A stretch of 46,349 bases of DNA from Pseudomonadota bacterium (GTDB lineage: Bacteria > Pseudomonadota > Alphaproteobacteria > Caulobacterales > Hyphomonadaceae), in contig JBCBAO010000001.1 in NCBI GenBank assembly GCA_038532405.1, positions 1-46,349 of the forward strand, written 5' to 3'. The notes beneath the pieces are model-generated. The model was not told the DNA's origin. It ran no database searches and worked only from the letters and a program-made list of their open reading frames with translations. This document shows, one piece after another, positions 1,808-32,989 of this stretch. A program made the translations under genes and the position numbers. Each line of letters opens with the position of its first letter. The stretch's first letter is position 1.

Positions 1808-1937
1808 TTTCTTTCTGCCGGCTCATAGCTTCCCAAAGTTGAAAATTTTTGCTATAAAAATCAGCAGTTAAGGCACAGCACCACAACTTAGCTGAACATA
1901 ATGAAACACTGCTTCTCAGAGGATTCCTGAGCCTAAA

Positions 1938-7225: not shown

Positions 7226-7228
7226 GCT

Positions 7229-8817: not shown

Positions 8818-9057
8818 GGTTTGAATATCGCCTAGAAGCGAGCTTTTCTTGATGCCAGCTTGCAAGGATCCAGCGGGATTCAATACAACGCAGTAGCTCC
8901 AAATTCGCAAATCTCTCCAGAGTTTTTTGTGCTCAATGAGAGCTCTATGATCTGGCCGCGATTAGCCAAAAAAGTTCGACAACTGTATCTTCACCACAGA
9001 AGTGACCAATTGACTAGGAGCCACCCTATCGATTGAGCCGATATTTCGTACAGGGCA

Positions 9058-9141
9058 TCACTTTTGCTTCTCTGGCCCACGCCGATCCAAAAGTTCCAGA
9101 AGTGGTCCGATATGGTTCACAACACACTTTTCTAGATCACG
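9058..9141 (-). pseudogene. remnant of the C-terminus of a paralogous large serine recombinase gene
   Basis: The minus strand translates DLEKCVVNHIGPLLELLDRRGPEKQK*. The intact recombinase has LVNHVGPLLELMRKYK near its C-terminus. At nucleotide level 9091-9120 matches 9690-9719 (aagttcNagaagtggtccgaNNtggttcac, 27 of 30). An in-frame stop lies immediately upstream at 9142-9144. Confidence 0.6.
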
Positions 9142-9604
9142 CTAGAAGCCACCATATTGGCTCAGTAAATGTGCTGAATACTAGACACAGACAATAAATA
9201 TTGTTTATATACAAATAGATAGTCTTTACTCTAATGGGCTCTTCATGAGCATACTCGTTAATTGCCAAGTGGAGGAAAAGACATGCTCGCTGGACATTCA
9301 GGTGCCACGGCTGGATATGACAGTGGTTCATTCACATAAGACATTTTCGACAGCAGCGGTAACTGGGTAGGGTTTATTTCTCCCGATGAGATTATAGATC
9401 TTGGCGATGAACGCACCCCAGCTGATATCATTGGAGCATCGTGTCCAGAACGGAGTGGTGTTCTCAATTCAGCAAGGTGGATTAAGCTTTTTCCTCAAGG
9501 AAAGATCGTTACGCTTCAATCGCTATGCTAAACAAAGCCCCAAAGACACCCCCCCAAAGGTGAGGTCTTTGCGGGCTATTTTTGTTTATGGAGACAGCCA
9601 GGTG

Positions 9605-16844: not shown

Positions 16845-17204
16845 ATGCGTGTCTCCATTTCCCATGACACCGTCCGCAAGGGCTTCATTCTCAAAACCAC
16901 CTATCATGAGGTGATCCTTCAGGTGGCTTTTACTCATGAAGAGAAACAGATCATCACACAAAGAGGCTTACTGAAAACCAAGCTGATGGATCGTCGTCCG
17001 GCCACAGCCAAGGTTGATGATCGAGATGAAAAGTTTGAGCTCCGCGTCGAAGATCTGATGGACGGCGCGATTGATCGATTTCTCTGCGCTACACCGAGCC
17101 AATCCAAAATCTACGAAGAAACGCTACTTGATGCGCTCCAGCAGATGAAACTCTGGCTCGATGATAACGCCGATACGGCGGACCGCACCGTGGTTGAGTT
17201 CTGA
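16845..17204 (+). CDS. hypothetical protein
   Basis: 119 aa. Its stop TGA overlaps the ATG of the downstream ATPase gene (TGATG at 17202-17206), which suggests an operon. Confidence 0.5.
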   Translation: MRVSISHDTVRKGFILKTTYHEVILQVAFTHEEKQIITQRGLLKTKLMDRRPATAKVDDRDEKFELRVEDLMDGAIDRFLCATPSQSKIYEETLLDALQQMKLWLDDNADTADRTVVEF

Positions 17205-19279
17205 TGTCTCGCAGTTTTGCCCAAGATTACGTGAGCTTCGTCCTCTTTGGGGTGATCCTGGCTATGATCCTCATCGTGGCAGTATTGGTGTCCTGGATCG
17301 CCTTGATCGGCATTCCGGCCTATGTCGGGTATCGCCTCTGGAAGGAAAATCCAAAGCGACTTGAGCGGCTCGCCCGTGAAGAAACCCAACTGCTGTTTGA
17401 TCACGCGCAGGCTGGAACTGTCCAACTCTCCGAAGAAGAGATCATGGACGGGCTAACACGGCATTGGTCGCCAGACATGCCGACCGTTCTTGGCGTGCAA
17501 CTCATGGAGATTGGCAGAGCGCTTTTTGAGGCCGAAGGGCTGGCAAAAGAGATCCCACCCCTGCCCGCGCTATGCAACACAATCGAAGGCGCGCGGTATC
17601 GCGACATGCTCGCCAAATCTGGGCAGGCCCGCACTGACAGAGTGATAGTCACGCAAGCGCTCGACATCATCAGTCAAGCTCTGGCCCCCATCGCGAACGC
17701 CGTGCCGCCGCTCGACGGCGACGTCATGGTTGAGGTCACGCAGTTCACCCAGCCGCTTGGTCGGACTGTGCAAAACATCATCGCTCCCTTCTTTGCCGAA
17801 AACGACTACCACCTCTTCAAAGAGCTTCGTCAGCGGATCGATAGCAACCTCACGGCCACCCATCGCACCAACCCGATTTTCCCAGTGGACTACAAAGGTG
17901 ATGATGTGGTCGACACCTACCTGCGCGGCACGTATCTCAAGGAGCTCTTCAAATTAAAGACCCCCTTCACCATCCCGGAAGACAGCCGGTTCGAACACAC
18001 CCATATCGTTGCTGGATCGGGCCACGGAAAAAGCCAAACTCTGCAATACTTCATCGCCAAGGATCTCGAAGGTGTCGCGCGCGGGGACCGCTCGGTTGTG
18101 GTGATCGACAGCCAGGGTGATCTGATCAACACCATTCTCAATGCCAAGGTTCTGCCGCCAGAACAGATTGTCCTGATCGACCCAGAGGATATCGGCTACC
18201 CGGTCAGCCTCAACCTATTCTCGGTCGGTCAGGATCGCTTAGAGAGTTACGACCCTTTAGAACGAGAGCGCCTCACAAATTCCATCATCGAGCTCTATGA
18301 CTTCGTCCTTGGGTCGCTGCTCTCGGCCGGAATGACAGCCAAGCAAAGCGTGGTCTTCCGGTATGTCACGCGGCTCATGTTTCATATCCCGGATGCCACC
18401 ATCCACACCCTGCGCGAATTGATGGAGCCGGGTGGCACGGCAAAATACCAAGAGCACATCGAAAAGCTCGAGGGCACACCGCGCCGCTTCTTTGAAACCG
18501 AGTTCGACAGCAAGGAGTTCACCAACACCAAAACGCAAGTGCTGCGCCGCCTCTATGGGGTCCTGGAGAACCAAACCTTCGAGCGGATGTTCTCGCACCC
18601 GGAGAGCAAGTTCGACATGTTCACGGAACTTGGTGCTGGCAAGCTCATCCTGATCAACACCGCCAAAAGCCTTCTCAAAGAACAGGGCACTGAGATCTTC
18701 GGCCGCTTCTTCATTGCTTTGATCGCACAAGCTGCTCAAGAACGGGCCACCCTGCCCGCCCGCGACCGTCTCCCTGCCATGGTATACATTGATGAAGCAC
18801 AAGACTATTTCGATCAGAACATCAGCGTGATCCTGAGCCAAGCCCGCAAATACAAAGTCGGTATGGTCATGGCCCACCAGTATCTCGGTCAGCTCACCGG
18901 AGGCCTACAAGAGGCCTTTGAGGCGAACACCTCAATCAAACTTGCCGGCGGCGTGTCTGCCCGTGATGCCCGCACGCTGTCTGGCCAGATGTCCGCGGAC
19001 CCACAGATGATCCAGCAGCAGCCTAAAGGCACCTTCGCGACTTACGTGCGTGGGTTGACGGAGCGCGCCGTGCCGCTGAGCTTTCCATTCTTCGTTTTGG
19101 AAAAGATGCCGCGCGCCACAAAAGACGAGATCGATGCCATCCGGCAACAGTGCCGTGCGGCCTATGCGGAGCCATGGTCACCAACGAGTAGCGATGAGCA
19201 ACCACCCGAGGATGAGCCGCCGGAAAACCCCGAAGAAAACGACCCAGATGATCCGCTAAAACCTTCGCCGGAGCTCTAG
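17204..19279 (+). CDS. VirD4/TraD-like coupling-protein-type ATPase with N-terminal TM segments
   Basis: 691 aa. The N-terminus is hydrophobic (FVLFGVILAMILIVAVLVSWIALIGIPAYV). Motifs are Walker A GSGHGKSQ, Walker B AMVYIDEAQD, and ARKYKVGMVMAHQYLGQ. The C-terminal tail is acidic and Pro-rich. Confidence 0.8.
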   Translation: MSRSFAQDYVSFVLFGVILAMILIVAVLVSWIALIGIPAYVGYRLWKENPKRLERLAREETQLLFDHAQAGTVQLSEEEIMDGLTRHWSPDMPTVLGVQLMEIGRALFEAEGLAKEIPPLPALCNTIEGARYRDMLAKSGQARTDRVIVTQALDIISQALAPIANAVPPLDGDVMVEVTQFTQPLGRTVQNIIAPFFAENDYHLFKELRQRIDSNLTATHRTNPIFPVDYKGDDVVDTYLRGTYLKELFKLKTPFTIPEDSRFEHTHIVAGSGHGKSQTLQYFIAKDLEGVARGDRSVVVIDSQGDLINTILNAKVLPPEQIVLIDPEDIGYPVSLNLFSVGQDRLESYDPLERERLTNSIIELYDFVLGSLLSAGMTAKQSVVFRYVTRLMFHIPDATIHTLRELMEPGGTAKYQEHIEKLEGTPRRFFETEFDSKEFTNTKTQVLRRLYGVLENQTFERMFSHPESKFDMFTELGAGKLILINTAKSLLKEQGTEIFGRFFIALIAQAAQERATLPARDRLPAMVYIDEAQDYFDQNISVILSQARKYKVGMVMAHQYLGQLTGGLQEAFEANTSIKLAGGVSARDARTLSGQMSADPQMIQQQPKGTFATYVRGLTERAVPLSFPFFVLEKMPRATKDEIDAIRQQCRAAYAEPWSPTSSDEQPPEDEPPENPEENDPDDPLKPSPEL

Positions 19280-20182: not shown

Positions 20183-21774
20183 GCCGATTCTGTTGAAGAA
20201 CTCGGGGCAAATGACGACAAGATCGTCGCTGGAGCGTCTGCGCGGGTTGCTTGCCCCGGAAGCTGATCCGGTCGACGCCCAAGTCGGCTGATTTGGCCGG
20301 TCAGATCATGCCATGGTCTCCGTTTGGACGGTCTTGGGCCTGAGCTTGGCGAGCTTTCTTAGGTTCTGTGCGATTGCTGCGAGAAGGAGCTCGTCCTTGG
20401 CTCCATTCGGTCCGCGCAGTCGCAATCTGGTCAGGTTCAGGATGCGCTTCAGATGCGCGAAGAGCATCTCGACTTTCTTCCTTTTGTCACGGCTGACTTT
20501 GTAGGCTTCCGTTTTGCGGCTGGACCGTGCGAAGTCGCGTGCGTCCTCATGCTCTTCCCGACTGATCGATCTGCAGATCGCATTTGGGCAGCACCTTTCT
20601 TTGGAGGGGCATCCCTGGCAGTCGGACTTCAGGGCGCGGTATTTACGAGTGCCGGTAATATTCTTGCCGCGATTGGGATCGGAGTAGTTTCGTCGGAACT
20701 GTTTGAGCGCGAAGCCTTCTGGGCAGATGTACTGATCGTTGGCCTCGTCATAATCAAACTCAAACCGTGTCCATGCTCCGTCCTTGCGGTTCGAGTGATC
20801 GATCACCGGAATGAAGGGGATGATCCCGCGCTTCTTGACCAGCCAACCTAGATTATCGCTGGAGCCATATGCTGTGTCAGCAGCGAGCCAATCCGGCCGG
20901 ATACCGAAGCGCTTTTCGGTGCGATCCAGCATTGTTTGAGACGCCCCCACCTCGGCCTGTCGGATTGCCCGCGTGGCCTCCACGTCCATAATCACTGAGC
21001 TTTTCGTATCGATCAGGTAATTTGTGGCATAGGCAAAGTACGGGCGGCTTTCCTCGGCTCGAGTCCACTGGGCCGCCGGATCACACTTGGCAATGAACTT
21101 GGGCTGGACAGGAGAGGCCGCGCCGAAGGCCGCATCATTCAGCGTTTCCAGATACTCTCTTGCCGCACGGTTTCCAGCTGCACGAGCGACGTCTTCATTC
21201 CATTCCTTTGCCGCTATGGAACGGGCCTTGTTGGCATCGGCTGGTATCAGGCTGGCGTCAACCGCGAAGCCCTCGCCGGATACGAGGTCTTCCTTAAGGC
21301 AGCGCTCGACAGTCGTCTCGAAGATATGGCGCAGCAAGTCGCTATCACGGAACTTGCCATGGCGGCACCTCGAGAACGATGAATGGTCCGGTACCTTGTC
21401 CTCGAGCCCAAGTCGGCAGAACCAGCGGTATGCCAAGTTGAGATGCACCTCCTGGCAGAGGCGGCGCTCAGACCGAATGCCCATCACATAACCAATCACC
21501 AGCATCCGGACGATGAGTTCGGGATCAATCGAAGGGCGACCTGTGTGGCTGTAGAACGGTTTCAGCTTCTCCCGCATGCCGCCTATGTCGAGGAAACGAT
21601 CGATCGCTCTCAGGACGTGATTGGGAGGGACATGTGCGTCCAGATCGAACTCGTAAAACAGCTGCGCCTCGACCTTTTGAATGCCCATCATCGCTCCATC
21701 CTCCCAATCTCGATAAATTGAGTGAATCAAACGACTTGCCGCACTGCAACACAGAGTTTTTCAACAGCATGGGC
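20183..21774. mobile_element. IS1182-family insertion sequence, apparently intact
   Basis: The imperfect terminal inverted repeats match at 18 of 21 positions. They are gccgattctgttgaagaactc (20183-20203) and the reverse complement of 21754-21774 (gcccatgctgttgaaaaactc). They enclose a single transposase ORF, and the length of about 1.59 kb is in the family range. Confidence 0.6.
20306..21691 (-). CDS. IS1182-family (IS5-like DDE) transposase
   Basis: MMGIQKVEAQLFYEFDLDAHVPPNHVLRAIDRFLD...GRPSIDPELIVRMLVIGYVMGIRSERRL is the typical N-terminal DUF772 region. A C-terminal DDE domain and a Cys cluster follow. I place the start at the MMG (21691) rather than the track start 21730. Confidence 0.9.
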   Translation of the reverse strand: MMGIQKVEAQLFYEFDLDAHVPPNHVLRAIDRFLDIGGMREKLKPFYSHTGRPSIDPELIVRMLVIGYVMGIRSERRLCQEVHLNLAYRWFCRLGLEDKVPDHSSFSRCRHGKFRDSDLLRHIFETTVERCLKEDLVSGEGFAVDASLIPADANKARSIAAKEWNEDVARAAGNRAAREYLETLNDAAFGAASPVQPKFIAKCDPAAQWTRAEESRPYFAYATNYLIDTKSSVIMDVEATRAIRQAEVGASQTMLDRTEKRFGIRPDWLAADTAYGSSDNLGWLVKKRGIIPFIPVIDHSNRKDGAWTRFEFDYDEANDQYICPEGFALKQFRRNYSDPNRGKNITGTRKYRALKSDCQGCPSKERCCPNAICRSISREEHEDARDFARSSRKTEAYKVSRDKRKKVEMLFAHLKRILNLTRLRLRGPNGAKDELLLAAIAQNLRKLAKLRPKTVQTETMA

Positions 21775-21980
21775 GGCAAGCCGACCTTCGCTGCGAGTGC
21801 ACTATCATGATGACCTACCTTGGAAGCGGACATCCGTGTCGAGCCCAACCAATACAAATCCAAAAAAAGCAGAATAGCTAAACTATCCGTCAAAGCGATC
21901 TATGCCTGCGTGAATACACGTTTGGATTGATTTAAGAGACTTATTCCCGCAGATTATGTCCAATTGACGAGGACAATTTT

Positions 21981-22694
21981 TTGAACACGCTTCTAGCCAA
22001 CGGGATCGATCTAGTTTTTCATGTCGCTCCTCTTCACTATCTGCCCTTCATTGCGCGATCGGGGCTTTTGAAATCTAAGGTGACTCTCAGAGATGAGGGA
22101 TTTTCTGAAAGTCATTTTCGGAGCAAGTCAAAACACTTGGATTCGCAACGCGGATTCGGAGACTACATTCACTTGTCGACAATAGGGCACCCACCCATCC
22201 TGGAGGCGAAGTTAGTCGCAGGGTTCCCTCACGTCTGTTTGTCGATCCAAGCCACAATTCTAGATGGCACAGAGTTCGACTTGTGCCGCTACAATGTCGC
22301 GATGTCACGCCAGCTTCGGCGGAACGATAAACCTGGGTTTGCAGAGGGACCTGCGAACGGGCGGTACTATGATGATCAACAGATACCGATCGCCAGAACT
22401 GAATTGGAGCAACAACAACTAATCCAGGCTCGAAATGGTGAGATGCTGGAAGTACTTGTGAAACCCCCTCTTGCACTCCCGAAGAACACACGTGTTTCAG
22501 TGTTTAGTTCAGAAGATCGCGAGAAAGCGACGTCCGTTTTGGAGCAGTTAGGGGCCGAGTGGGCTGTGTCGCTTGCCAATGCACCTGGGTACCAAGCTCG
22601 CGATCATTATTCATCTGCGTGCGACCAATTCATAGCCATGTGCCTCGACGACGATAGCTGGAAGGGCAACGGCCTCGAGTTTGATCGGATCTGA
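21981..22694 (+). CDS. DarT-like (DUF4433-like) ADP-ribosyltransferase-fold protein, putative
   Basis: 237 aa with a TTG start 7 nt after GAGGA. An H-Y-E-like pattern is spaced as in DarT: LVFHVAPLHYLPFIARSGLL, GDYIHLST, and EMLEVLVKPPLALPKNTRVSVFS (compare DarT AEFLVYKAFPW..IAVYS). This is motif-level only. A Tpt1/KptA-like assignment is the alternative. Confidence 0.45.
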   Translation: MNTLLANGIDLVFHVAPLHYLPFIARSGLLKSKVTLRDEGFSESHFRSKSKHLDSQRGFGDYIHLSTIGHPPILEAKLVAGFPHVCLSIQATILDGTEFDLCRYNVAMSRQLRRNDKPGFAEGPANGRYYDDQQIPIARTELEQQQLIQARNGEMLEVLVKPPLALPKNTRVSVFSSEDREKATSVLEQLGAEWAVSLANAPGYQARDHYSSACDQFIAMCLDDDSWKGNGLEFDRI

Positions 22695-22696
22695 CG

Positions 22697-23260
22697 ATGA
22701 TACTTCTTTTGAGCGGACCAGCTGCAACTGGAAAAACGACGATTTGCGAAAGCCTCAGAGCTAACCATGGATTTGCGGCAATTAAGTCTAGCCGTCATCT
22801 GCGTACTCTGGTGCAACCGCCCGAAAGAGAAGTAACACGAGAGATTCTACAGAAGATTGGCGACCGGTTGGACGTCGAGACGGACTTCAATTGGCTGGTC
22901 ACCGATGTAGCAGTTCCGCAGATAAACGCACAGCAGGATCAAAAATTTTGGTTTGTCGACAGCGTTAGGAAACCCGAACAGATTGACCGATTTTCAGAGG
23001 CGTTTCCGGGGAAAGTCCTACACTGCCACGTTACCGCCCCTGACTCAGTATTGAGATGCCGAATGCAGGCTAGAGACGCATCCAACGGTAGTTTTTCCTA
23101 CGAGAAAACCTACGCAGAGCATGTCGCTCACCCTAACGAAATCTCTGCCCGCGCATTGGGTGATGTCGCTACGCACGTAATTGATACCTCAAGATACGAC
23201 GCGTTTTTCGCATGCGATGCGATTATGAAAGGGTTTCACGAGTTATGTCGCGAAAAGTAA
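22697..23260 (+). CDS. P-loop nucleoside/nucleotide-kinase-like protein
   Basis: 187 aa. The ATG lies 2 nt after the upstream stop. Walker A is LLLSGPAATGKTT at the extreme N-terminus, and the small size is typical of NMP-kinase-like folds. It is paralogous to the N-terminal domain of the next gene. Confidence 0.7.
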   Translation: MILLLSGPAATGKTTICESLRANHGFAAIKSSRHLRTLVQPPEREVTREILQKIGDRLDVETDFNWLVTDVAVPQINAQQDQKFWFVDSVRKPEQIDRFSEAFPGKVLHCHVTAPDSVLRCRMQARDASNGSFSYEKTYAEHVAHPNEISARALGDVATHVIDTSRYDAFFACDAIMKGFHELCREK

Positions 23261-24963
23261 TCTTGGTTAGTGGTCGGATCTGTACTTGGAAAACGGATCT
23301 TTCTTCAAAGTTGGAACGACGGCGCGGTTTCTATCATCTTAGAACGAGCGACAAACTCAGAGAAATAGCTGCGCAGAGAGATCTTCCCCAAGATCGAAAG
23401 AGCCTACAAACACTTGGCGATATCCTGGATCGCGAAACTGACGGCGCATGGGTGTACGAGGTCGTTCGCGATGTACTAAACAACGGAGGTTCTCGTAGTC
23501 CAATTGTTGTGGATCACCTACGACATCGCGAACAAGTCGAGCACTTCAGAGCACAAAACATGCATAACGTCGTGCACGTACATCTTTATGCCGACGAAAA
23601 CTTTCTGAGCTCGGAATTTCAAAGACGTAAGGAGCTTAAGCCGGAACCCGTATCAGAGTCCTATGAAGATGCAGATCCCCTTCATGGCAATGAAGAAGAC
23701 ATAAGCTGGTTCAAAAAAGACGCAGATGTTCGCTTGAACGTCACCAATACAGACGCTGAAGATACTTTTGTCAGGGTTTGCGCCGCCCTTAGAATTAACC
23801 CAGATCAGCAAGTTAGATGTGTAGACGTCGTTGTGGGTGGGCAATTTGGCAGTGAAGGCAAGGGCAACATCGCCGCGTACTTGTCGAAAGAGTACGATGT
23901 GTTAGTTCGGGTTGGCGGGCCAAACGCAGGACATACAGTAGCGAGCCCCAGCGGCGAATTTACTTATCATCAATTGCCGTCGGGCGCGAAGGACTGCGAT
24001 GCCGAACTGTTGCTTGGACCCGGTATGACCATTGACGTCTCAAAGTTGCTCAAAGAAGTCGAGCAGGCAGGGATCGATGAAAGCCGCCTATTTATTGACC
24101 CCGATGCGATGATCATAAGTCCAGAGGACATCGAACAAGAAAATGAGCTTAGAGACAGTATTTCCTCTACTGCGAGTGGTAGCGGCGCGGCGGCGGCGCG
24201 GAGAATAATGGGGCGCGCCGGAAACACTAAGTTGGCGAAGGATATACCGGAGCTAGAGCCTTTCGTCGGTGGAAAGAAGACTTCCAGAGGGTCAACCATG
24301 CGTCGTTTGGAAGCTGCGTTCGCTTCGGGCAAATCAGTATTGTTGGAAGGGACACAGGGTAGCGGGCTTAGTCTGTATCATGGGCCGTATCCGCATGTGA
24401 CGTCGCGGGATACAAATGTTGCCGGTTGTCTAGCCGAAGCTGGTATATCGCCGGCAAGACTAAGGCGAGTTATTCTAGTTACGCGTACTACTCCAATTCG
24501 GGTTGCTAATCCGGAAAGTAGAGGGAGATCATCTGGCACATTAAAATATGAAACTACTTTCGACGCGATTGCGAAGAAAGCTGGACTAGATGCCGGGCAG
24601 GTAAAGAAAGCAGAAAAGACATCTACGACACGGAGGGACCGGCGAGTCGGCCACTTTGATTGGGAGTTGTTTCGAAAGTCATGCAAACTCAACGCGCCAA
24701 CCGACATAGCGCTCACATTTGCTGACTACATCTCCAGTGGCAACAAAGACGCACGCCGTTTCGAGCAATTAACTCGACCGACGCGGGAGTTTATTGAGGA
24801 GCTCGAGTTGGTTTCACAGGCACGCGTTACGTTGATTAATACTAGGTTCCCTAGGCCGGCAGAGCATCGAAGCGCTGATCTAAGAAGCACTATCGACCGG
24901 CGCAGCTGGCGAGGAAATCTTACTGTTGTACCAGAACTAAAACAGGGTGAACGAGACGAGTAG
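23245..24963 (+). CDS. fusion protein: kinase-like N-terminal domain (degenerate Walker A) plus divergent adenylosuccinate-synthetase (PurA/PurZ-like) domain
   Basis: The start at MSRKVILVSG gives a 16-nt overlap with the upstream gene. The C-terminal domain matches PurA motifs in order. These are GGQFGSEGKGN (GDEGKG), GGPNAGHTV (GG.NAGHT), LEGTQGSGLSLYHGPYPHVTSRDT (EGAQG..LD.DHGTYP.VTS), TSTTRRDRRVGHFD (GATTGR.RR.GW.D) and LTFADY (LTKLD). Confidence 0.8.
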   Translation: MSRKVILVSGRICTWKTDLSSKLERRRGFYHLRTSDKLREIAAQRDLPQDRKSLQTLGDILDRETDGAWVYEVVRDVLNNGGSRSPIVVDHLRHREQVEHFRAQNMHNVVHVHLYADENFLSSEFQRRKELKPEPVSESYEDADPLHGNEEDISWFKKDADVRLNVTNTDAEDTFVRVCAALRINPDQQVRCVDVVVGGQFGSEGKGNIAAYLSKEYDVLVRVGGPNAGHTVASPSGEFTYHQLPSGAKDCDAELLLGPGMTIDVSKLLKEVEQAGIDESRLFIDPDAMIISPEDIEQENELRDSISSTASGSGAAAARRIMGRAGNTKLAKDIPELEPFVGGKKTSRGSTMRRLEAAFASGKSVLLEGTQGSGLSLYHGPYPHVTSRDTNVAGCLAEAGISPARLRRVILVTRTTPIRVANPESRGRSSGTLKYETTFDAIAKKAGLDAGQVKKAEKTSTTRRDRRVGHFDWELFRKSCKLNAPTDIALTFADYISSGNKDARRFEQLTRPTREFIEELELVSQARVTLINTRFPRPAEHRSADLRSTIDRRSWRGNLTVVPELKQGERDE

Positions 24964-25385
24964 TTTTGTGACATGCAAGGTGGATTGACAGAACTTGTGC
25001 CTCTGGCTTTGACCTCCACGGCCATTGCACCTGTTGGATTCATATATGCGGTATCAGCTAAAGCGTCGTTCAGTAGGTCATTTGAGTTCAGAAAGGGCGG
25101 TCGACCCGGTGGGACCGCTCTTTCCGTTGCTGTTTGAGTGACTCTGAAAGTCATCCATCACGCATCGTCGTGCGGGGATTTAGTTTGCCGTAGGCGTTGC
25201 TGACGAACTTCCCAGTTACGCCGCTCCGCATTGATCCATGAGTCGAACCTCCACCAACGCGCTCTTTTACAGTCGTTCGAGGACTGCGCTTTGCATGCGC
25301 TTTAGTGACGAAGCGACCTTAGATGGTACTTCTTGCACATGTTCGGCTGCTCTTCTTTGCCATAGTTCTTTGTCCTTTCTATTGG

Positions 25386-25766
25386 CTACGCCGCCTGAGC
25401 TTCCGTCTCATCGATGACCCGAGCCGAGCCCGCGTTGTTGGAGACGGAAAACGCGCAATTCTTGGCGTTGTGTTTTTGGATGTAGCGCTCGCTGCGCACC
25501 ATGGTTTCGCCATTCGAAGCGACAAAGCGGGTGAAGTACTGACCATCACTCGACTTGACGATCTCCCAGCGATACCCGCTTGCTGTCTCACCCAATGTAA
25601 GATCGACAATCGGCGCGCCCAGGGCATTTGATTTCAGAGAAGAGATGTTCCCCTTCGCCGCGGCTTTCGTGGTGAAGTTCTCTGACCACACCATGATTTC
25701 GGAGTTGTAGGTGAAGCGCACACGGTACTGACCGCTTGCCGCATCAACAATCCTGAAAGCGTACAT
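25386..25766 (-). CDS. YegP-family protein (tandem DUF1508 domains)
   Basis: 126 aa in two repeats: SGQYRVRFTYNSEIMVWSENFTTKAAAKGNISSLK and DGQYFTRFVASNGETMVRSERYIQKHNAKN. Both fit the DUF1508 pattern. Confidence 0.8.
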   Translation of the reverse strand: MYAFRIVDAASGQYRVRFTYNSEIMVWSENFTTKAAAKGNISSLKSNALGAPIVDLTLGETASGYRWEIVKSSDGQYFTRFVASNGETMVRSERYIQKHNAKNCAFSVSNNAGSARVIDETEAQAA

Positions 25767-25865
25767 AGCATACTCCTTTATTGCTATAGTGACGTTGTGT
25801 TGCTAGTTAGCAATTACAGGGATATCCGATTCTTGAGCAATTGCAAGAGTGAAATGGGAGAGCAC

Positions 25866-26231
25866 ATGTCGAATTTCTTTGATGCGGAGGGCTTCTACGC
25901 TGCCCTCGATGCGATCAGGCGAGATAGAGAGGTTTCTTGGAAGAAAGTTGCAGAGAAAGCCAAAATCTCGGCTTCTACTTTGACCCGCATGGGTCAGGGA
26001 AAACGACCCGACGTTGACAGCCTTGCGGCACTGGCATCCTGGTCGGGTTTAGATGTGAGCCAGTTCTATCGCGACGCCGGCACACCGCGAGCTCAAAAAG
26101 ATACGCTCGCAGAGATAACCACTCTGCTTCGTGCGGACAGACACATCGGCGGTGAAGACGCTCAAACGATGGAGCTCATGATCAAGACGCTCTACGAGGA
26201 TATGAGGAAACGCAGGGCAGATGGGACATAA
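25866..26231 (+). CDS. XRE-family helix-turn-helix regulator
   Basis: The ATG at 25866 is preceded by GGGAGAG. The HTH is WKKVAEKAKISASTLTRMGQGKRPDVDSLAALASW. The track ORF starts further upstream at GTG 25797. Confidence 0.75.
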   Translation: MSNFFDAEGFYAALDAIRRDREVSWKKVAEKAKISASTLTRMGQGKRPDVDSLAALASWSGLDVSQFYRDAGTPRAQKDTLAEITTLLRADRHIGGEDAQTMELMIKTLYEDMRKRRADGT

Positions 26232-26799
26232 GTTCAAGCACGGTTTCAAGGCGGAAGCCGAGCGGTACGCAGAAGAATTCAGAACGGAGTTGGATCTCAG
26301 GCCGGACGATCCTTTGTGTCCGCGTAGGCTGGCAGAGCACTTAGGTGTTCCTGTCTTTGGCATTCGTGATAATCCAAAATTGCCATCAGAGATTACTAAC
26401 CACTGGGCTAACCACCCAGAAGATCCTTTTTCTGGTCTGATAATCTCGGACGGAAGCTACAAAGAGATACATCACAACGATTTTCACCATCCTCGCCGCC
26501 AGAACTCTGATTTGGCGCATGAGCTAGCGCACATAATCATGGGTCACGACCTCGAAACGCCGATCAAAGACAACGGCGAACGAGCGTATGACAGAAATAC
26601 AGAAGAAGAGGCCAAATGGTTGGGTGGGACGCTGCTGCTTCCAAAGAAGGCCACAGTCAAAATGGTACTGGACTCATTCTCCAGAGAAATGGTGGAAGAG
26701 ATCTACCAAGTCAGTTGGCAGATGTATCAATACCGCCTGCAAGTGACCGACACAGTAAGAGCGGCAAAGAATATCCGGCGGAAGTACGCTGCAGAGTGA
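26221..26799 (+). CDS. ImmA/IrrE-family (COG2856, DUF955) zinc metallopeptidase
   Basis: 192 aa with an 11-nt overlap with the XRE gene. It has the HEXXH motif HELAHIIMGH with a downstream E (EEEAKWLGG). Confidence 0.85.
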   Translation: MGHKFKHGFKAEAERYAEEFRTELDLRPDDPLCPRRLAEHLGVPVFGIRDNPKLPSEITNHWANHPEDPFSGLIISDGSYKEIHHNDFHHPRRQNSDLAHELAHIIMGHDLETPIKDNGERAYDRNTEEEAKWLGGTLLLPKKATVKMVLDSFSREMVEEIYQVSWQMYQYRLQVTDTVRAAKNIRRKYAAE

Positions 26800-27077
26800 G
26801 CAGTTCACTCGTCAGCACTGGCAGCGAATGGCAGCAATGCGGGCTGCAGCTGCAGCATCAGTAAAGGGCGATGAGAGTCCGGTTGGGGCCGCGACCAACG
26901 GTGAGATCTATTAGCTCGCTGAGCTGACGCTGCGGTGCCGCAGGTCCGCTTCGAGCCCATGGCGGACATTCTCCGACAGCTTTAAAAACCCAGAGTTCCC
27001 TGGATCATTCAACCAGCGAACTAGACACGGGTAAATCGCTGCTTCAACATACACTTGCGCCACAAGAAGGTGATCAA

Positions 27078-29204
27078 ATGTCCACGACAGTAATTCGGGC
27101 GCCCAATAATGGGCGGACAATAGTGTTTATTCATGGGCTTTTCTCGAATTCTACTGGCGCTTGGCGAAACCCGAATGGCACCTATTGGCCAGACATTGTG
27201 AAGGATGATGCTAGTTTTGAGGGTTGGGGGATTGTGTGTTTTGAATATGACGCATCGTTCGGTTCTGGGGATTATTCGTTATCTGACGTGGAGGGCGCAC
27301 TTGAGCACGAACTAGCAGCGAATGGAGTGCTTAAAGGCAAAGAAATCCTTTTCGTCGGTCACTCGATGGGAGGGATTCTAGCGCGTCACTTCACTGTCTC
27401 CCGGCAAATGGACCTTTTGCAAAAGAACATCACAGTTGGATTGTTTCTCGTCGCGTCGCCATCCTTAGGCTCACACTATGCTAACTATTTCCGGTTGATG
27501 GTCGGATTGCATGATACGCAAATCGATAGCCTGCGTTTGAGCGGTTCAAATACTTGGCTGAACGATCTTGATAAACAGTTTTACAGGATCAAAGAATTGG
27601 GTCAGATCAAGATATACGGTCGGGAGCTGACAGAGGCCAATCCTCCGGTGCTACGAGGTTTCTTACCTTGGAGCAAAATTGTCCCCCAATATTCAGCGGC
27701 GAGGAACTTTCCAGACCCGCTCACAGTTCCGAAAAGCAATCATATCTCGATCGCAAAACCAGATAGCGCCGCAGCGATACAGCATCAGGCGCTTGTGAGA
27801 TTGATAACGGCAAGGGGCGCTCCTCACTCAACTAAAGTGGAAACATCGCTGAAAAGTACAGAAGGTCCAGCGGAGGCAAGTTTAACCGGTGGGACCGCTG
27901 ACTTGATGGACAACGGCGTATTTCGTGCCGTCATCGCCGCCGAAAAAAATGGTATCGACAGTTTGCCCGATCCTGATTGCCCAGTTTCAGAGCTCTACGA
28001 AGTTGCAAATCGCCTTTCGCAAGGCCGGTATTGGGAACGCGCAACTGCGCACTGGTTGGTTGCACGTCACGGGCGCGGGCTTGAGGTTTTCAAGCACGCA
28101 ACCGAGGTCGCCAAAAGTGAAAGGCGCGCTGTCTCTCAAGGGCATCTCGCCTGGCTAATGTCTGTTCCAAAAGATGCGTTCCCATATAGTGAAATCAAAA
28201 ACATATCTGAGAGCGCACGCTGCTCGAGCGTTGATAAAACTCGGATGTTTTTGGGCATGCTTGGTCATGCTGGCCGAGATTCCGAGCTACCGATAATGGA
28301 CTGGGAAGATGAGTATGATTTGTCGAAATTGTCTTACGATTATTTGACAGCTGTCGCCGCTTCGATGTCGCGCTCAAAAAAAACTGACGACATCAAGTAT
28401 TCCGTGTGGCGTGCGATACGATGTGCACGGGCCAGAGGCGACGAGGAGTATCATTTTTTTGATCATTTGAAGTTTTTTGGCTGGATGCCACCGTCGCATG
28501 CGCCGGTCATTCTTGAGACGATGATCTCTGAAGCTGCGCCAAAGCAAATGTTATTGGGTTTTCTCGCAAACCTTTCCAGTCAGCCCAATCCAAAAGTAAT
28601 CGGTGACCTGTTGGTATTGGCGCGAGGTTCGGACGAAGAGATTTCGCGTGCCGCAACCATGGCCCTCGTGTGGACGCCTTCGAGCGATCGACAAAAAAAT
28701 GAAATTGATGGTTTTTTGATTGATGGAAGCGCCGCGAAATATGTAAGCGACGGGTTGAACCCGGCGTCAATTCCAGACGGAGACGCACTGTCCGAGCTTC
28801 TGGAAAACGAGGTGGGTATGTGCGCAGCATGGGCGTTCGCCAATCGCGCCCTTGCTGAGCCAGCGCTTGCAAAAGAGATTCCCTCACTGGTTTCAGATCT
28901 CTCTGACTTGCGCGCGGCAATACTATTGGCAGCCTTGGCCAGAACTGACCCTAGATCGGCTGAGCCACTTATAGATGAGCGCCTGAGCTACTCGCTAGGT
29001 ATCGAAGAGTTCCTCCTTAGGGTGGCACAAACCTATATTTCGGGACCCACCGGGATGTTTAAGATGTTGTCGGATACAGACGAGCACACTCTGTACCCGC
29101 CATTTCTAATTGAAGTCCTCAAACGAGTGTACCGCGATGCGCTAGAAACTGCGCTGGTCACGACGCCGGGTCTGGCGGAAATCAAGCAACGGGCTTTGTG
29201 GTAG
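27078..29204 (+). CDS. lipase/esterase-type alpha/beta hydrolase (GHSMGG nucleophile elbow) fused to a large helical HEAT/ARM-like repeat region
   Basis: 708 aa. The N-terminal 230 aa contain IVFIHGLFS, LFVGHSMGGILA and NHISIAKP, as in the PGAP1/DUF676-like lipase fold. The remaining about 470 aa are helical and repeat-like (for example GDLLVLARGSDEEISRAATMALVW). I found no Walker A motif. Confidence 0.7.
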   Translation: MSTTVIRAPNNGRTIVFIHGLFSNSTGAWRNPNGTYWPDIVKDDASFEGWGIVCFEYDASFGSGDYSLSDVEGALEHELAANGVLKGKEILFVGHSMGGILARHFTVSRQMDLLQKNITVGLFLVASPSLGSHYANYFRLMVGLHDTQIDSLRLSGSNTWLNDLDKQFYRIKELGQIKIYGRELTEANPPVLRGFLPWSKIVPQYSAARNFPDPLTVPKSNHISIAKPDSAAAIQHQALVRLITARGAPHSTKVETSLKSTEGPAEASLTGGTADLMDNGVFRAVIAAEKNGIDSLPDPDCPVSELYEVANRLSQGRYWERATAHWLVARHGRGLEVFKHATEVAKSERRAVSQGHLAWLMSVPKDAFPYSEIKNISESARCSSVDKTRMFLGMLGHAGRDSELPIMDWEDEYDLSKLSYDYLTAVAASMSRSKKTDDIKYSVWRAIRCARARGDEEYHFFDHLKFFGWMPPSHAPVILETMISEAAPKQMLLGFLANLSSQPNPKVIGDLLVLARGSDEEISRAATMALVWTPSSDRQKNEIDGFLIDGSAAKYVSDGLNPASIPDGDALSELLENEVGMCAAWAFANRALAEPALAKEIPSLVSDLSDLRAAILLAALARTDPRSAEPLIDERLSYSLGIEEFLLRVAQTYISGPTGMFKMLSDTDEHTLYPPFLIEVLKRVYRDALETALVTTPGLAEIKQRALW

Positions 29205-29501: not shown

Positions 29502-31217
29502 TCAGGAGAAAAGCTTACGCTTTCGGAATTTCTCACGACCTTCCGTAAAATGAGAAACTTGCCAGCTGTCGTCGGACTCTAAGAAGGCCGCGGGTCTTGG
29601 ATCGCGACCTGCATTTCGCAGGGCCACTGTCCGGAAATAGAGATGGCGGTGGAGCCGGTTGTATTCTGTCAACATGATCGGTGCTATTTCTCGGGCCCAA
29701 TCGCCCGCAAAGAGCAGCATGTTCTCATCGTTCCGGGTCACCGACGGTTCCGAGAAATTCGCCGACCCTGAGAAGATACGCGCACGGTCTGACAGTGGAT
29801 CGATCATCATCATCTTGGTGTGGATGTAGAAGACATGGCCCTCCTTTCGGTGCCGTTGTTCCCGCAAAAACCAATTGTCGAGCTGGTTGCCCTCAAGCCC
29901 TGCCGTTACCGTGCGGCGCGCCAGCAAGTTGCCATAGGCTACTATGTTGTCTGGGTCCGCTTCTACAAGCGCCATCGCTGCTTTAATGGTGGCATGGTTA
30001 CCGCCATTCTCTGCCAACATGAACCGCAAGGTGTTATTGCCTTCATGGAAGGCTTTGGAGACTGGTCCGCGCACGCCAAAGGCGGCGGTCAAGAAGCCCG
30101 CCTGTTCTGCAGCGGCCATTTCAGCACCGTACCACTCCCACATGCCCGTCTCGCGCGGCGAAAAAATGGGATGAACACCGGGTCGTAGCTCATCTGGCGT
30201 GGGCCAGGTTTGCGTGTTGAACTCCCGAAACCGGCCAACCTCAGGGTCCTTGGCCAGAAACTCCCAATACTGGTTGTAAGCACTGGCAAGGGCCTCATCC
30301 TCCACGATATGCGCCAAGTTCGACTGACCCAGAAAGCCTGACGGTGTGATGTTGGTCGAGCCGGTCCAAATCGCAACGGGCCGGTCCTGATCCAGTAGCA
30401 CCATGAATTTGTTATGCGGAATGCCAGACCACTTCGTCCGCATATGCAGGGTCAGGCCTTTGCGAGACATCGATTGCAGGCGCAGCTCATCCTGGATGAC
30501 CGCGTCCCAGTTCCGCAGGCTTTGGCCATCCATGTAAACATCTCCGTCCTTGCGATGATCGCCAGACTTAAAGCAGATGCGCACCTGAGCGCCCCGATTG
30601 GCCGCATCTTTCAGTGCCCTCAGGATCGGGAAATAGGTGAATTCATAGGCCGCGACCCGCAGTTCTTGTCCCGGGCCCGCGCGGCCTATGAAATCGAGCG
30701 TGGCCTCCAAGAGCCCCCGTGACAGCCATTTCACCTTGGGGTTCGTTGGATCGTTTTGCTCTTCTTCTGTGGGATAGGTGTTGCCAAAGCGCCGTGCAAA
30801 GGCCTGACCCGGCACCGCACCGAGATTGAAATGCAACGCCTGTCGCGACCCTTCGGCATTGCCTGTCTGGACCGTCAGCTCGATATCCGTCCCCGGCTTC
30901 AGGTTGTCTGGTGTGCCATAGAGCGGCCGGACCACATAGTCATAGGTCTTGCCGGGCGAGGCTTTGTAGTCCGCCCATTGGTAGTCCTGGATGGGATGCT
31001 CAAGCGTCGATTTCAACATCCCGGGTTCCGGGTCGGGCAGGGTCTCGCGGAAGAACTTGAACCCATTCATCCAGGCTATCGTGTTGCTGGATTGCCTCCG
31101 CCCGAGAGCGAAGCCAAGAAGGCCCTGCCGGGCCTCCTCCGTCGCATCCATCCCGAACAGAACCGTATGAGATCCTGCAATGGCATGGACTGAAATACCT
31201 GCGGCTGACTTCCGCAT
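29502..31217 (-). CDS. phospholipase D superfamily (two HKD motifs) protein
   Basis: I place the start at ATG 31217, 8 nt after GGAGGG and 27 nt after the upstream stop. The track start 31274 would overlap the upstream gene. HKD motifs are IPHNKFMVLLDQD..TGSTNITPSG and YIHTKMMMIDPLSDRARIFSGSANFS. No signal peptide is evident. Confidence 0.85.
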   Translation of the reverse strand: MRKSAAGISVHAIAGSHTVLFGMDATEEARQGLLGFALGRRQSSNTIAWMNGFKFFRETLPDPEPGMLKSTLEHPIQDYQWADYKASPGKTYDYVVRPLYGTPDNLKPGTDIELTVQTGNAEGSRQALHFNLGAVPGQAFARRFGNTYPTEEEQNDPTNPKVKWLSRGLLEATLDFIGRAGPGQELRVAAYEFTYFPILRALKDAANRGAQVRICFKSGDHRKDGDVYMDGQSLRNWDAVIQDELRLQSMSRKGLTLHMRTKWSGIPHNKFMVLLDQDRPVAIWTGSTNITPSGFLGQSNLAHIVEDEALASAYNQYWEFLAKDPEVGRFREFNTQTWPTPDELRPGVHPIFSPRETGMWEWYGAEMAAAEQAGFLTAAFGVRGPVSKAFHEGNNTLRFMLAENGGNHATIKAAMALVEADPDNIVAYGNLLARRTVTAGLEGNQLDNWFLREQRHRKEGHVFYIHTKMMMIDPLSDRARIFSGSANFSEPSVTRNDENMLLFAGDWAREIAPIMLTEYNRLHRHLYFRTVALRNAGRDPRPAAFLESDDSWQVSHFTEGREKFRKRKLFS

Positions 31218-31243
31218 TTGCTCGCCCTCCAGTTCTGGCTCGC

Positions 31244-32989
31244 TTATTCTTGAAGGATCATGACGACTGGGCAATGATCCGAAAGCCGCTGCCGCGCGCG
31301 ATCATCATAGGCCGGATCGTCCTCAAACCCCATACTTAGCTTCATCGGATCACTGGTCCGTGCGAGGTCTTTGACGAGACTGTCATAGATTACCAGATCG
31401 ATGTGATCGTCATAACGCTCCACATGTTCTGGCCAACATACCGTATCTCGTCCCGATGGCCCTTTACTCAACGTCAGATCGTTGGGCGTGCCATCATTGA
31501 GATCAAGCCAGAAATCATCGATCGGCTCTTGCATGTCATTGGTCGCATTCATGTTGCGATTAAAGTCGCCGAGAACAATCGTTGCGATTCCTTGCGCCGC
31601 CTGCTGTTCAATCCAGCTCTCCAAAATCGACAATTGTGCGCGCAAGGTGCGACAATCGAACCGCGACGAGAAAGGCGCGCCCGTGCTTGGGTTTTGATCC
31701 ACAACCGGATCCAAAGACCATCTGTGACAAAAAGACTTAAGGTGGACCCCAAGGATGCGAACCGGCTCACCAGAGATCGTGATATCTGCCACCATCCCCG
31801 CCCGGGTTTTGCGCGCACTGGGTGTCCCATCTCGATCAAATCCCAAATGAGTGATGGCGAGCGCCTCAAGAGACTCCGTTTCCGGTACGGTTGGAAACCT
31901 CTCTTTTGAAAACACCAGGGCAGTGAAGATGTCTCTGTCTTTCGCAGGGCGATTTTCCGCACCCTCTTCATATCGATCAGACATCACCAGATGATATTGA
32001 TCCTCCGGGAAGATACGACGCGCCGCCCGCGGGGAGCCGATCTCTTGCAAGGCGACGATATCGAGATCCATCTCCGACGCAAGATCGGCCAAGCGCTCAT
32101 AGTCGATGTCTTCGCGTGCAAAGGCGCGTGAGCGGAGTGCCACACCGGTTTCGTGGTGCAAGTTGGCAATGTTCCACGTGCCGATGCGCAGCGCATCAAC
32201 CGTAGGGGTGACTGCCGAATTGGCCATCAGCGTTGGTGCAACGCCACATTCTGCTCCGTAGATCGCGTCAACAAGCTCCGGCTCGTCTATCAACACATTC
32301 CGATTGCCTTGCTCGGCTTGGGTGCGCTCGTTGCGTTCCATCTCTTCCGTCGAGACCGGGTCTGCCCGGTGCCAGTCCAGAAGGGTACAGAGATCACCGA
32401 TTTCTTTTCCACCGCCCGCAACGGAATCATCGCGCAGTGTCAAATCTGGATCGGATCCCGTGCCCTCATAGCGCAGGTCGATGTAGAACATCGCGCGCGC
32501 CACATCGCCTTTGACCTCATCGCGAGGCTCGAAACTATCATAATCCAAAAATGTATTGGGCGCTTCGCCTTCTGGATCGCCCCCATTGTCGAAATTGAGA
32601 CTGCCACGATTGTTGTTCACGCTTGCATCCGTGGGCATCAGGTGAAAGAGGTCACTCTTCATTGGGGTTCGGCCGGTGCCTCGAGACTGTGGCCAGAGAT
32701 GCTCTCGGTTCCACCCATTTTGCGGGTTCCCGTTGACCCAATCCGACACTGCCTGCGACCGCCCGGTGTAAAACAGGATGAGATTATCCTCTATCGCTGC
32801 GTCTGCATGGATCCTGGCCATGGCTTCATCTGTCTGACTATAGTCCAGAGCACGGTGGCCAGTTTTGAGCCGTAAATGCGTTTCTTCGCGTAATTGATCG
32901 ACGGAAAGCGTTTGTGCTTGGAGGGGAGCACCCGAGAGAAATAGACTTGTGATCACACCAGAAAAAACAAGTGCCGTATTTCTTTTCAT
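31244..32989 (-). CDS. secreted bifunctional nuclease: endonuclease I (Endonuclease_1) domain plus endonuclease/exonuclease/phosphatase (EEP) domain
   Basis: 581 aa with signal peptide MKRNTALVFSGVITSLFLSGAPLQAQT. The endonuclease I motif is WNREHLWPQSRG...DLFHLMPTDASVNNNRG. EEP motifs are LRIGTWNIANL, DIVALQEI, VLGDFNR and SDHCPVV. Confidence 0.85.
   Translation of the reverse strand: MKRNTALVFSGVITSLFLSGAPLQAQTLSVDQLREETHLRLKTGHRALDYSQTDEAMARIHADAAIEDNLILFYTGRSQAVSDWVNGNPQNGWNREHLWPQSRGTGRTPMKSDLFHLMPTDASVNNNRGSLNFDNGGDPEGEAPNTFLDYDSFEPRDEVKGDVARAMFYIDLRYEGTGSDPDLTLRDDSVAGGGKEIGDLCTLLDWHRADPVSTEEMERNERTQAEQGNRNVLIDEPELVDAIYGAECGVAPTLMANSAVTPTVDALRIGTWNIANLHHETGVALRSRAFAREDIDYERLADLASEMDLDIVALQEIGSPRAARRIFPEDQYHLVMSDRYEEGAENRPAKDRDIFTALVFSKERFPTVPETESLEALAITHLGFDRDGTPSARKTRAGMVADITISGEPVRILGVHLKSFCHRWSLDPVVDQNPSTGAPFSSRFDCRTLRAQLSILESWIEQQAAQGIATIVLGDFNRNMNATNDMQEPIDDFWLDLNDGTPNDLTLSKGPSGRDTVCWPEHVERYDDHIDLVIYDSLVKDLARTSDPMKLSMGFEDDPAYDDRARQRLSDHCPVVMILQE

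Follow-up and report, generated by a model that had tools for sequence, protein, structure and literature searches.

A mobile bacterial cassette coupling a DarT-like ADP-ribosyltransferase-fold protein to kinase-like and PurZ-like adenylosuccinate synthetase domains: a candidate conflict system

I analysed a 46,349-nucleotide (nt) stretch of DNA, hereafter the window, which comprises positions 1 to 46,349 of the forward strand of contig JBCBAO010000001.1 (GenBank assembly GCA_038532405.1) from an alphaproteobacterium of the family Hyphomonadaceae. Three genes, called g1, g2, and g3 here, lie at positions 21981-24963, where the list of open reading frames (ORFs) matches exactly the placement given by a first-pass annotation made by a model from the sequence alone. 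The features of this cassette are as follows.

21968..21972, plus strand: Shine-Dalgarno-like GAGGA, 8 nt 5′ of the g1 TTG start (read from the sequence)
21981..22694, plus strand: g1, 237 amino acids (aa), TTG start; DarT-like ADP-ribosyltransferase (ART)-fold protein, predicted NAD+-using effector
22697..23260, plus strand: g2, 187 aa; predicted nucleoside-monophosphate (NMP)-kinase-fold protein with a canonical Walker A motif, GPAATGKT
23245..24963, plus strand: g3 as a whole, 572 aa; kinase-like domain fused to a short adenylosuccinate synthetase (AdSS)
23245..23811, plus strand: N-terminal domain of g3; kinase-like paralogue of g2
23812..24963, plus strand: C-terminal domain of g3; short-form AdSS family with PurZ-type active-site features

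The tight coupling described in the first-pass annotation was borne out by the coordinates. The spacing between g1 and g2 is 2 nt, and g2 and g3 overlap by 16 nt, an arrangement which indicates that the trio is translationally coupled. The TTG start of g1 at 21981 is supported by the GAGGA Shine-Dalgarno sequence 8 nt upstream. The public annotation of g1 is a 151-aa product only, and its homologues are 237-241 aa in length; the TTG start was evidently missed. An alternative in-frame ATG of g3 lies at 23212 (the longest ORF), and the start was set at 23245 because the homologues begin at MSRKVILVSG, which corresponds to this position. Are these ORFs true? g1 has 391 homologues, and dozens of unrelated contigs carry the trio with this gene order, so the ORFs are real and not chance ones. 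As was also annotated at first, the trio lies immediately after an insertion sequence (IS), whose transposase (DUF772 and DDE_Tnp_1; 20306-21730, minus strand) is 250 nt upstream. The GC content, said to be lower than that of the backbone, is about 0.50 (0.495-0.513 over 22-25 kb) against 0.53-0.56 in the flanks, and the whole window spans 0.43-0.62; the dip is real but modest. Promoter and terminator scans gave site numbers no higher than in shuffled sequence.

It was found that the C-terminal domain of g3 matches PF00709 (Adenylsucc_synt) with an E-value of 1.4e-48. The first-pass annotation had proposed a fusion of a kinase-like domain and a PurA-like domain. The fusion itself stands, an AAA_18 paralogue of g2 being joined to an AdSS domain, but the AdSS P-loop is PurZ-like (GSEGKG) and not PurA-like (GDEGKG). 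The GSEGKG motif was found in 102 of the 120 family members, that is, in all of those where the motif could be located. In these members and in the window, a Ser residue stands at the position of the catalytic Asp13 of PurA. Asp13 is 99% conserved in PurA, while a Ser residue is found instead in 100% of the phage PurZ and PurZ0 sequences (PMC12884076). The replacement of Asp13 by Ser had been missed at first, as had a Trp residue in the Walker A motif of the kinase-like domain of g3 described below. The alignment revealed further PurZ-like traits: an ‘ST’ for the ‘TT’ of PurA, a PIRV for the TRV, and an insertion after the PIRV loop. In PurZ, the corresponding loop and insertion have been tied to exclusion of the ribose 2′-OH group (PMC8342488).

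Overall similarity places the domain near the archaeal short enzymes. The ranking against the PDB is headed by Pyrococcus horikoshii PurA (4e-47), followed by PurZ0 (2e-32) and PurZ (5e-31), with pairwise identities of 40%, 38%, and 33%, respectively. The NCBIfam scores are 262 bits for the short archaeal AdSS model (cut-off 368), 205 bits for PurZ NF038379 (cut-off 300; E = 1.4e-60), and 172 bits for purA (cut-off 396); the AdSS equivalog models, including one at 146 against 402, are all under their cut-offs. An Asp residue is retained at the position of Escherichia coli D333, which contacts the guanine of GTP in PurA; this is a PurZ0-like as well as PurA-like feature. The Arg residues of the aspartate loop are also kept, as in PurA. 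By its sequence, the g3 AdSS domain represents a bacterial Ser-type clade of short AdSS. Since its P-loop is PurZ-like, its most plausible substrate is the nucleotide of a 2-amino purine (guanine) and not IMP. Hundreds of full-length homologues share the two-domain build of g3, which public annotations name ‘adenylosuccinate synthetase’. In phage records, no kinase-AdSS fusion was found; only the AdSS domain has matches there, at 30-33% identity.

The reading of g2 as a kinase-like protein was upheld by profile and model. g2 matches AAA_18 of Pfam (2.7e-8), and a profile of 17 orthologues matches a short adenylate kinase (AK1; 3e-8) and a UMP kinase (1e-6) in the PDB. The AlphaFold2 model of g2 has a mean predicted local distance difference test (pLDDT) score of 85.5. 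Foldseek matched it to UMP/CMP kinase (4.8e-7) and to AdkA-like proteins, with template modelling (TM) scores of 0.64-0.74 for the latter; against UMP/CMP, adenylate, and guanylate kinases, the TM scores range from 0.55 to 0.74. On these models, g2 is an NMP-kinase-fold protein and not a polynucleotide kinase. The N-terminal domain of g3 (AAA_18, 7.4e-6; AAA_17, 3.4e-5) is paralogous to g2, with about 28% identity and tblastn E-values of 1e-10 to 1e-12. Its Walker A motif in the window (near 23269-23292) is GRICTWKT, in which Trp replaces the second Gly. The motif is mostly G[RH]xC[TS]GK[ST] in the family, and the Trp variant occurs in the clade of the window (16 cluster representatives). The kinase-like domain of this Trp clade may have a regulatory rather than a catalytic role. 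In some homologues (P0138 and P0139, of 719 and 746 aa), g2 and g3 are fused.

Is g1 really a DarT-like protein, as the first-pass annotation claimed? The motifs quoted there are present. However, the match to PF14487 that it expected was found only transitively via distant relatives. g1 itself has no Pfam match at E ≤ 1 and none in NCBIfam or PADLOC, and a profile of 40 homologues found nothing among PDB sequences at E ≤ 10. Every one of the 391 homologues found, about 239 aa in length, is labelled ‘hypothetical’ and has no Pfam domain. Thus, g1 is outside PF14487 by the criterion of the hidden Markov model (HMM), and a direct sequence link between g1 and DarT was rejected, the link being only structural and transitive via sister families. 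An AlphaFold2 model of g1 made from the homologue alignment has a pLDDT of 91.8 and a predicted TM score of 0.89. In a Foldseek search against the PDB, its best eight matches are all DarT (E = 5.9e-7 to 6e-3, probability 1.0, TM 0.48-0.59), including Mycobacterium tuberculosis DarT and E. coli DarT1. The top match is Thermus DarT (7omy; E = 5.9e-7, TM 0.51/0.56), and the DarT matches are followed by Tpt1 and the ART CteC.

When 1.84 billion representatives were searched exhaustively with a profile, the g1 family proved to be small (204 representatives), and two more distant sister groups were found in addition. Sub-threshold matches to PF14487 (E = 1.5e-4 to 7e-3) come from several distant relatives of g1, not from g1 itself. 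Across g1 and the sister groups, residues H14, P17, R47, D54, H64, H84, E157, and D235 are invariant, and N105 is kept in at least 90%. The best PDB match of the sister-family profile is Thermus DarT, although weakly (E = 0.33). This alignment places H14 on H13 of DarT, R47 on R50/51, and E157 on E160, a position which is Ala in the crystallised Thermus DarT mutant; it also places Ser66 of g1 on Tyr71 of DarT2. The weak active-site alignment agrees with the fold match. Among the DarTG toxins, DarT2 is thymidine-specific and DarT1 is guanosine-specific, with E160 and E152 as the respective catalytic Glu residues. DarT1 has a Ser residue (Ser63) at the position of Tyr71 of DarT2 (PMC11543638). 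From the model, g1 is a divergent DarT-like ART-fold protein with an apparently intact active site, and is predicted to be an NAD+-using effector. A tblastn search of g1 against the PLSDB plasmids gave no match, and a search of a viral structure library gave weak, uncharacterised matches only.

One sister family of g1 (L034-L037; P0401, P0440, and P0421) consists of proteins of 212-228 aa with the same invariant H/R/D/H/H/E residues. Its neighbourhood on the chromosome is conserved and contains an ABC-F ATPase, a GGDEF-HD protein, a peptidase S9-like protein, and PNPOx; a Zeta-toxin-like kinase is sometimes present as well, whereas AdSS is missing. As a guide to the function of g1, this family proved uninformative, given its conserved chromosomal setting without AdSS.

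How common is the trio? Loci were pooled from a scan of one genome per species (27 loci) and a metagenome scan (66 loci), and were not de-replicated. Among the 46 loci with at least 3.2 kb of sequence downstream of g1, 39 have the kinase and AdSS genes directly after g1, and the trio is thus syntenic elsewhere, as the first-pass annotation predicted. Two kinase domains are present in 31 of these 39 loci, one in six, and three in two. The core is g1 plus the kinase-AdSS fusion, with a second kinase which is usual and sometimes fused to g3. When the flanking ORFs were clustered, only g1, g2, and g3 were common across unrelated flanks, and a MazG-like gene was the sole recurrent extra. This gene encodes a pyrophosphohydrolase of about 105-120 aa (Pfam MazG, about 3e-7 to 9e-7) and lies divergently, 16-158 nt upstream of g1, in seven loci of different lineages. 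No macrodomain gene is present in the window, as had been stated, nor is NADAR; neither is among the 25 most frequent Pfam families of the flanking ORFs, and no flank cluster of this kind recurs. PurB, DatZ, DpoZ, and a dedicated polymerase are likewise absent from those 25 families.

The hosts are mostly Alphaproteobacteria, among them Rhodopseudomonas, Bradyrhizobium, Tardiphaga, Devosia, Sphingomonas, Ruegeria, and Parvibaculum. Others are Betaproteobacteria, Gammaproteobacteria, Bacteroidota (Chitinophaga), and Acidobacteriota (metagenome-assembled genomes (MAGs) of Pyrinomonadaceae). The nearest named relatives of the window are from an uncultured Roseobacter sp.

I also found six loci in which g1 stands by itself, as neither an AdSS nor a kinase nor an ADP-ribose-removing partner is nearby. 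These orphan copies keep all invariant residues and sit among ordinary housekeeping genes. Evidently, g1 can function, or at least persist, alone. One orphan, P0018 (L002/L010, in the Parvibaculaceae MAG OZ244796.1; 4700-6717 of L010), starts 5 nt after the stop codon of a canonical 431-aa purA gene (GDEGKG) and is beside serA, while the related orphans P0019, P0020, and P0015 are not beside purA. A functional tie to the housekeeping purA was rejected: the case is a single occurrence, and other orphans of the same subclade lack a purA neighbour.

The first-pass annotation placed the trio in an accessory, non-housekeeping setting, and this was confirmed. The cassette is accessory, moves horizontally between distant bacteria, and often lies within defence islands. 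A relaxase gene is beside the trio in L004, and genes of a Bil-type ubiquitin-like system are found in L004/L012 and also at L052 and L065. In L007, L038, and L039, g3 is followed directly by Kiwa, which in L048 and L095 is instead found upstream of g1. Further defence genes within 3-5 kb include a short pAgo with SIR2-APAZ, Shedu, type IV and type II restriction enzymes, and PDC-S19. The element in the window has a DUF87/HerA-like ATPase gene (17204-19279), whose homologues, 46-57% identical, flank diverged trios at 10130-12298 of L013 and 12-1490 of L022. This suggests that the cassette is a recurrent cargo of one family of integrative elements.

What might such a cassette do? From the sequences and models, the best-supported reading is a nucleotide-centred conflict system, by virtue of the folds, the synteny, the lack of a macrodomain or NADAR partner, the accessory mobility, and the defence neighbours; on this point, the idea put forward in the first-pass annotation is retained. 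Specifically, I tentatively favour a horizontally transferred conflict cassette, most likely anti-phage, in which a purine-nucleotide-modifying module is paired with an NAD+-dependent ART effector. The AdSS domain would ligate aspartate to (d)GMP rather than IMP, with GTP as the probable phosphate donor, yielding N6-succino-2-amino-(d)AMP. In some variants, the MazG-like pyrophosphohydrolase may supply the monophosphate from (d)GTP. The two NMP-kinase-like modules would phosphorylate this product, or a 2-aminoadenine nucleotide made from it by the host PurB, to the di- or triphosphate. Guanine nucleotides may be depleted, an aberrant purine nucleotide may accumulate, or both, and the nucleotide may be a poison, a decoy, or a signal. 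Finally, g1 would transfer ADP-ribose from NAD+ onto a base in nucleic acid or onto a nucleotide, halting the replication of the invader.

Several observations weigh against this scheme. The DarT HMM fails on g1, which resembles DarT structures to a moderate degree (TM about 0.5). For g3, the model of archaeal short PurA outscores that of PurZ and the Arg residues of the aspartate loop are kept, so IMP or another substrate is possible. The P-loop of the kinase-like domain of g3 in the window is non-canonical. The MazG partner is missing from the window and from most loci, and the orphan g1 copies persist without the nucleotide module. Many loci lie among ordinary housekeeping genes, and the defence association consists of neighbour tallies with no proper genomic background. 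In PADLOC-DB 2.0.0, no system gave a significant match; there are only marginal dCTPase and VakA matches of the kinase domains (E = 1e-3 to 6e-3). In favour of the scheme, however, the dCTPase match, weak as it is at about 1e-3, falls on the P-loop part of the model, and antiviral dCTP deaminases have a similar kinase-like domain fused to a nucleotide-converting domain.

A bolder version of the favoured scheme is possible, though I consider it somewhat unlikely. During infection, a bacterial PurZ-like enzyme together with dedicated NMP kinases would make a succino- or 2-aminoadenine nucleoside triphosphate (NTP) from guanine nucleotides, and this nucleotide would either poison phage replication or, as a second messenger, activate the DarT-like ART. 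The Z-DNA chemistry of phages might then have been co-opted by bacteria, or might have originated in them.

By analogy with Kongming, the nucleotide could instead be a true messenger: a nucleotide raised by infection (e.g., dGMP from degraded host DNA) would be converted to a succino- or 2-aminoadenine NTP, which would switch g1 on. This overlaps with the favoured scheme, being one specific form of its poison-or-signal step. The composition of the cassette suits such a pathway, with an enzyme modifying the base of an NMP, NMP kinases, and an NAD+-using effector, and the tolerance of orphan g1 copies suits an effector which is inactive until its ligand is bound. There are also precedents. In Kongming, dITP produced by a deaminase and kinases activates an NAD+-consuming effector, and m6-dAMP from chromosome degradation is documented as a danger signal in another defence system. 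However, the trio has no homology to the Kongming proteins. Moreover, g1 is compact and consists of one domain, so that a sensor domain apart from it is not obvious, and ligand binding by g1 is putative only. Signalling in this strict form therefore seems improbable to me.

Could the cassette be a toxin-antitoxin or addiction module? In that case, the toxin g1 would be neutralised by the kinase and AdSS proteins, by substrate consumption, an inhibitor, or binding, in place of DarG or NADAR, and the module would stabilise the island. The DarT-like fold with its intact catalytic residues, the tight translational coupling as in toxin-antitoxin operons, the carriage on integrative or mobilisable elements, and the lack of any other antitoxin candidate among the neighbours all fit this idea. 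On the other hand, orphan g1 copies with all invariant residues are tolerated in housekeeping settings without a neutralising partner, and the supposed antitoxin would be enzymatically complex, comprising about 760 residues in three domains which seem to be catalytic and whose active sites are conserved; known antitoxins are not of this kind. The presence of a MazG-like partner also indicates nucleotide flux and not simple neutralisation. An addiction module is thus hard to credit, and the suggestion in the first-pass annotation that the kinase and PurA-like proteins counteract g1 is weakened, as orphan g1 copies with catalytic residues stand alone.

The last alternative is metabolic or self-modifying, i.e., salvage or biosynthesis of adenine-type or 2-aminoadenine nucleotides for the host or for the element itself (e.g., for partial Z substitution of its DNA against restriction, or for a nucleoside natural product), or regulation of AdSS by g1 through ADP-ribosylation. 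It can appeal to the ordinary nucleotide-metabolism folds and the product name of g3, to those loci which are among housekeeping genes, to the one orphan g1 located 5 nt downstream of purA, and to the regulatory link between ART and purine synthesis proposed by the authors of PMC12522546. It is nevertheless unlikely to be right, since the loss of Asp13 makes normal PurA chemistry unlikely, the cassette is accessory and patchily distributed amid flanks that vary, defence systems often lie nearby, PurB, DatZ, and a dedicated polymerase are not among the 25 most frequent flank families, and the purA adjacency is a single case.

The favoured conflict cassette is carried here by an integrase-bearing integrative island, which makes up the window. 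The island contains an integrase gene, a RES gene, a serine recombinase gene, genes for TrwB-like and DUF87 ATPases, Replic_Relax, the IS, the trio, DUF1508, the XRE/M78 pair, and a PLD nuclease gene. A likely boundary was found in regions 1-3107 and 4000-10000, where a housekeeping CoA-transferase gene (GC 0.62) is followed by a tyrosine integrase gene (1938-3107) and then by DNA with a GC content of 0.43-0.47. A tRNA search for an integration site found none anywhere in the window. The features next to the trio are as follows.

21746..26832: block common to L007, L038, and L039 (about 88-93% nt identity, blastn), with the trio, DUF1508, XRE, and M78
25386-25766, minus strand: DUF1508 gene (Pfam)
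25797-26231: gene for an XRE-type helix-turn-helix protein (Pfam/PADLOC scans)
26221-26799: M78/CapP-like peptidase gene (PADLOC, 2.7e-10)

The XRE/M78 pair and DUF1508 were considered as components of the system and rejected, because they do not accompany the trio family-wide but in its closest relatives only. They are probably neighbours rather than components. In close relatives, a KwaA/KwaB pair of about 1.37 kb lies between g3 and DUF1508 (3326-4725 of L007; 11071-12432 of L038). The window lacks this pair and has a clean junction at 25046-25089, which reflects either a deletion here or an insertion in the relatives.

Other parts of the window also hold genes of note. At 7229-8817, a 302-aa ORF with no Pfam match overlaps the start of a gene for a RES-domain protein (PF08808, 3e-13), and from its sequence the pair looks like a two-gene RES toxin module. 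At 25386-29204, the DUF1508 gene on the minus strand is divergent from the XRE and M78 genes, which are followed by a gene for a 708-aa alpha/beta-hydrolase whose C-terminal region is long and uncharacterised. This region may be a separately regulated defence-like unit. On the minus strand at 29502-32989, two overlapping nuclease-type genes encode a 590-aa PLD-family protein (with a weak DrmC-like PADLOC match) and a 581-aa fusion of Endonuclease I and EEP domains. A 3790-aa ORF at 33874-45246, also on the minus strand, has RTX calcium-binding repeats, HCBP_related repeats, and DUF4214, and its product is probably a secreted adhesin or toxin-like protein.

How does the cassette compare with known systems? 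The first-pass annotation did not recognise the combination as a described one. PADLOC 2.0 indeed has no such system, and a literature search linking adenylosuccinate with anti-phage defence found no description of the cassette; a survey of 2025, however, noted an association of DarT-like proteins with AdSS (PMC12522546). This survey of Legionella ARTs (BMC Genomics 2025) described the Lmac_3114 ART-like family as a distant homologue of DarT, similar to Tpt1, with AdSS in 60% of neighbourhoods (PMC12522546). Its operons occur in rhizobia, and the Pseudomonas aeruginosa version consists of ART, AAA, AdSS, and NUDIX genes; the work was purely bioinformatic (PMC12522546). The reported taxonomic spread is similar to that of the cassette, and the NUDIX gene of the P. 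aeruginosa version is echoed by the MazG-like partner. In contrast, motif II of Lmac_3114 is ‘FFW’, while the motif is Y-[IV]-H-L-[ST] in g1 and in every relative retrieved, none of which has FFW. As judged by the description in that paper, taxonomic and contextual grounds make it likely that the g1 family is the Lmac_3114 family. The paper is silent on the PurZ-type Ser, MazG, and the defence-island setting (PMC12522546). The present study newly shows that the active site is of the PurZ type, that a MazG partner recurs, that the core is g1 plus the kinase-AdSS fusion, that orphan copies of the ART are tolerated, and that the neighbourhood is often that of a defence island.

With DarT, the cassette shares the fold of g1, whose model has DarT structures as its best matches, and the aligned His residue on strand 1, Arg residue of the NAD site, and catalytic Glu residue. 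The g1 family has Ser or Thr at the position of Tyr71 of DarT2, as DarT1 has Ser63. Unlike DarT, g1 has no HMM match and reaches a TM score of only about 0.5, its partners are nucleotide-metabolism enzymes instead of DarG or NADAR (neither of which is among the 25 most frequent flank families), and its orphan copies are tolerated.

With PurZ and PurZ0 of the 2-aminoadenine phages, which are accompanied by MazZ, g3 shares a short AdSS with Ser for Asp13, the ST and PIRV motifs and the insertion, and with PurZ0, the Asp residue at the D333 position. The small MazG-like gene adjoining the cassette in seven loci resembles the MazZ-PurZ pair (PMC8342488). In contrast to PurZ, g3 is bacterial, falls under the NCBI cut-off, and has its AdSS fused to a kinase-like domain and coupled to an ART; unlike in the PurZ phages, DatZ and DpoZ are not among the most frequent flank families of the cassette loci. 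The archaeal short AdSS (P. horikoshii PurA; PDB 2D7U and 5K7X) is the best overall match of the C-terminal domain of g3 (4e-47, 40% identity), and both have the same short build without the long insertions of bacterial PurA. The archaeal enzyme, however, keeps GDEGKG and the TRVGAGPFPTE loop and is a stand-alone housekeeping enzyme.

Kongming, the dCTP deaminases including AvcD, RADAR, and the viperins resemble the cassette in tying a nucleotide-converting enzyme and kinases to growth arrest or an NAD+-consuming effector. The dCTP deaminases also have a P-loop kinase-like domain fused to a nucleotide-converting domain, although the PADLOC match is weak. According to the literature, the effector complex of Kongming consists of KomB, a purine NTP pyrophosphatase, and KomC, a SIR2 protein, and is activated by dITP. 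Kongming has no AdSS or other PurA-like component, and the cassette was thus rejected as a Kongming system. Nor is there significant sequence kinship with any of these systems. The chemistry of the cassette would be aspartate ligation at C6, and the cassette encodes its own kinases instead of relying on those supplied by the phage. Judged from sequences and models, the cassette appears to be a hybrid of DarT-type ADP-ribosylation and PurZ-type purine chemistry, and belongs to neither family by HMM criteria.

If the cassette is a defence system, it would add C6 aspartate ligation, the chemistry of PurZ and PurA, to the immune nucleotide transformations already known, namely deamination, cyclisation, dehydration, and hydrolysis. 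It would also tie DarT-type ADP-ribosylation to small-molecule nucleotide metabolism and not to a macrodomain antitoxin. These hypotheses are directly testable, as the cassette is only 3 kb in length, has clear catalytic residues, and occurs in cultivable hosts such as Rhodopseudomonas, Bradyrhizobium, Tardiphaga, and Ruegeria. Furthermore, the short AdSS enzymes of the Ser type, as a bacterial clade, are relevant to the question of where phage PurZ came from; its origin is currently traced to the archaeal short PurA.

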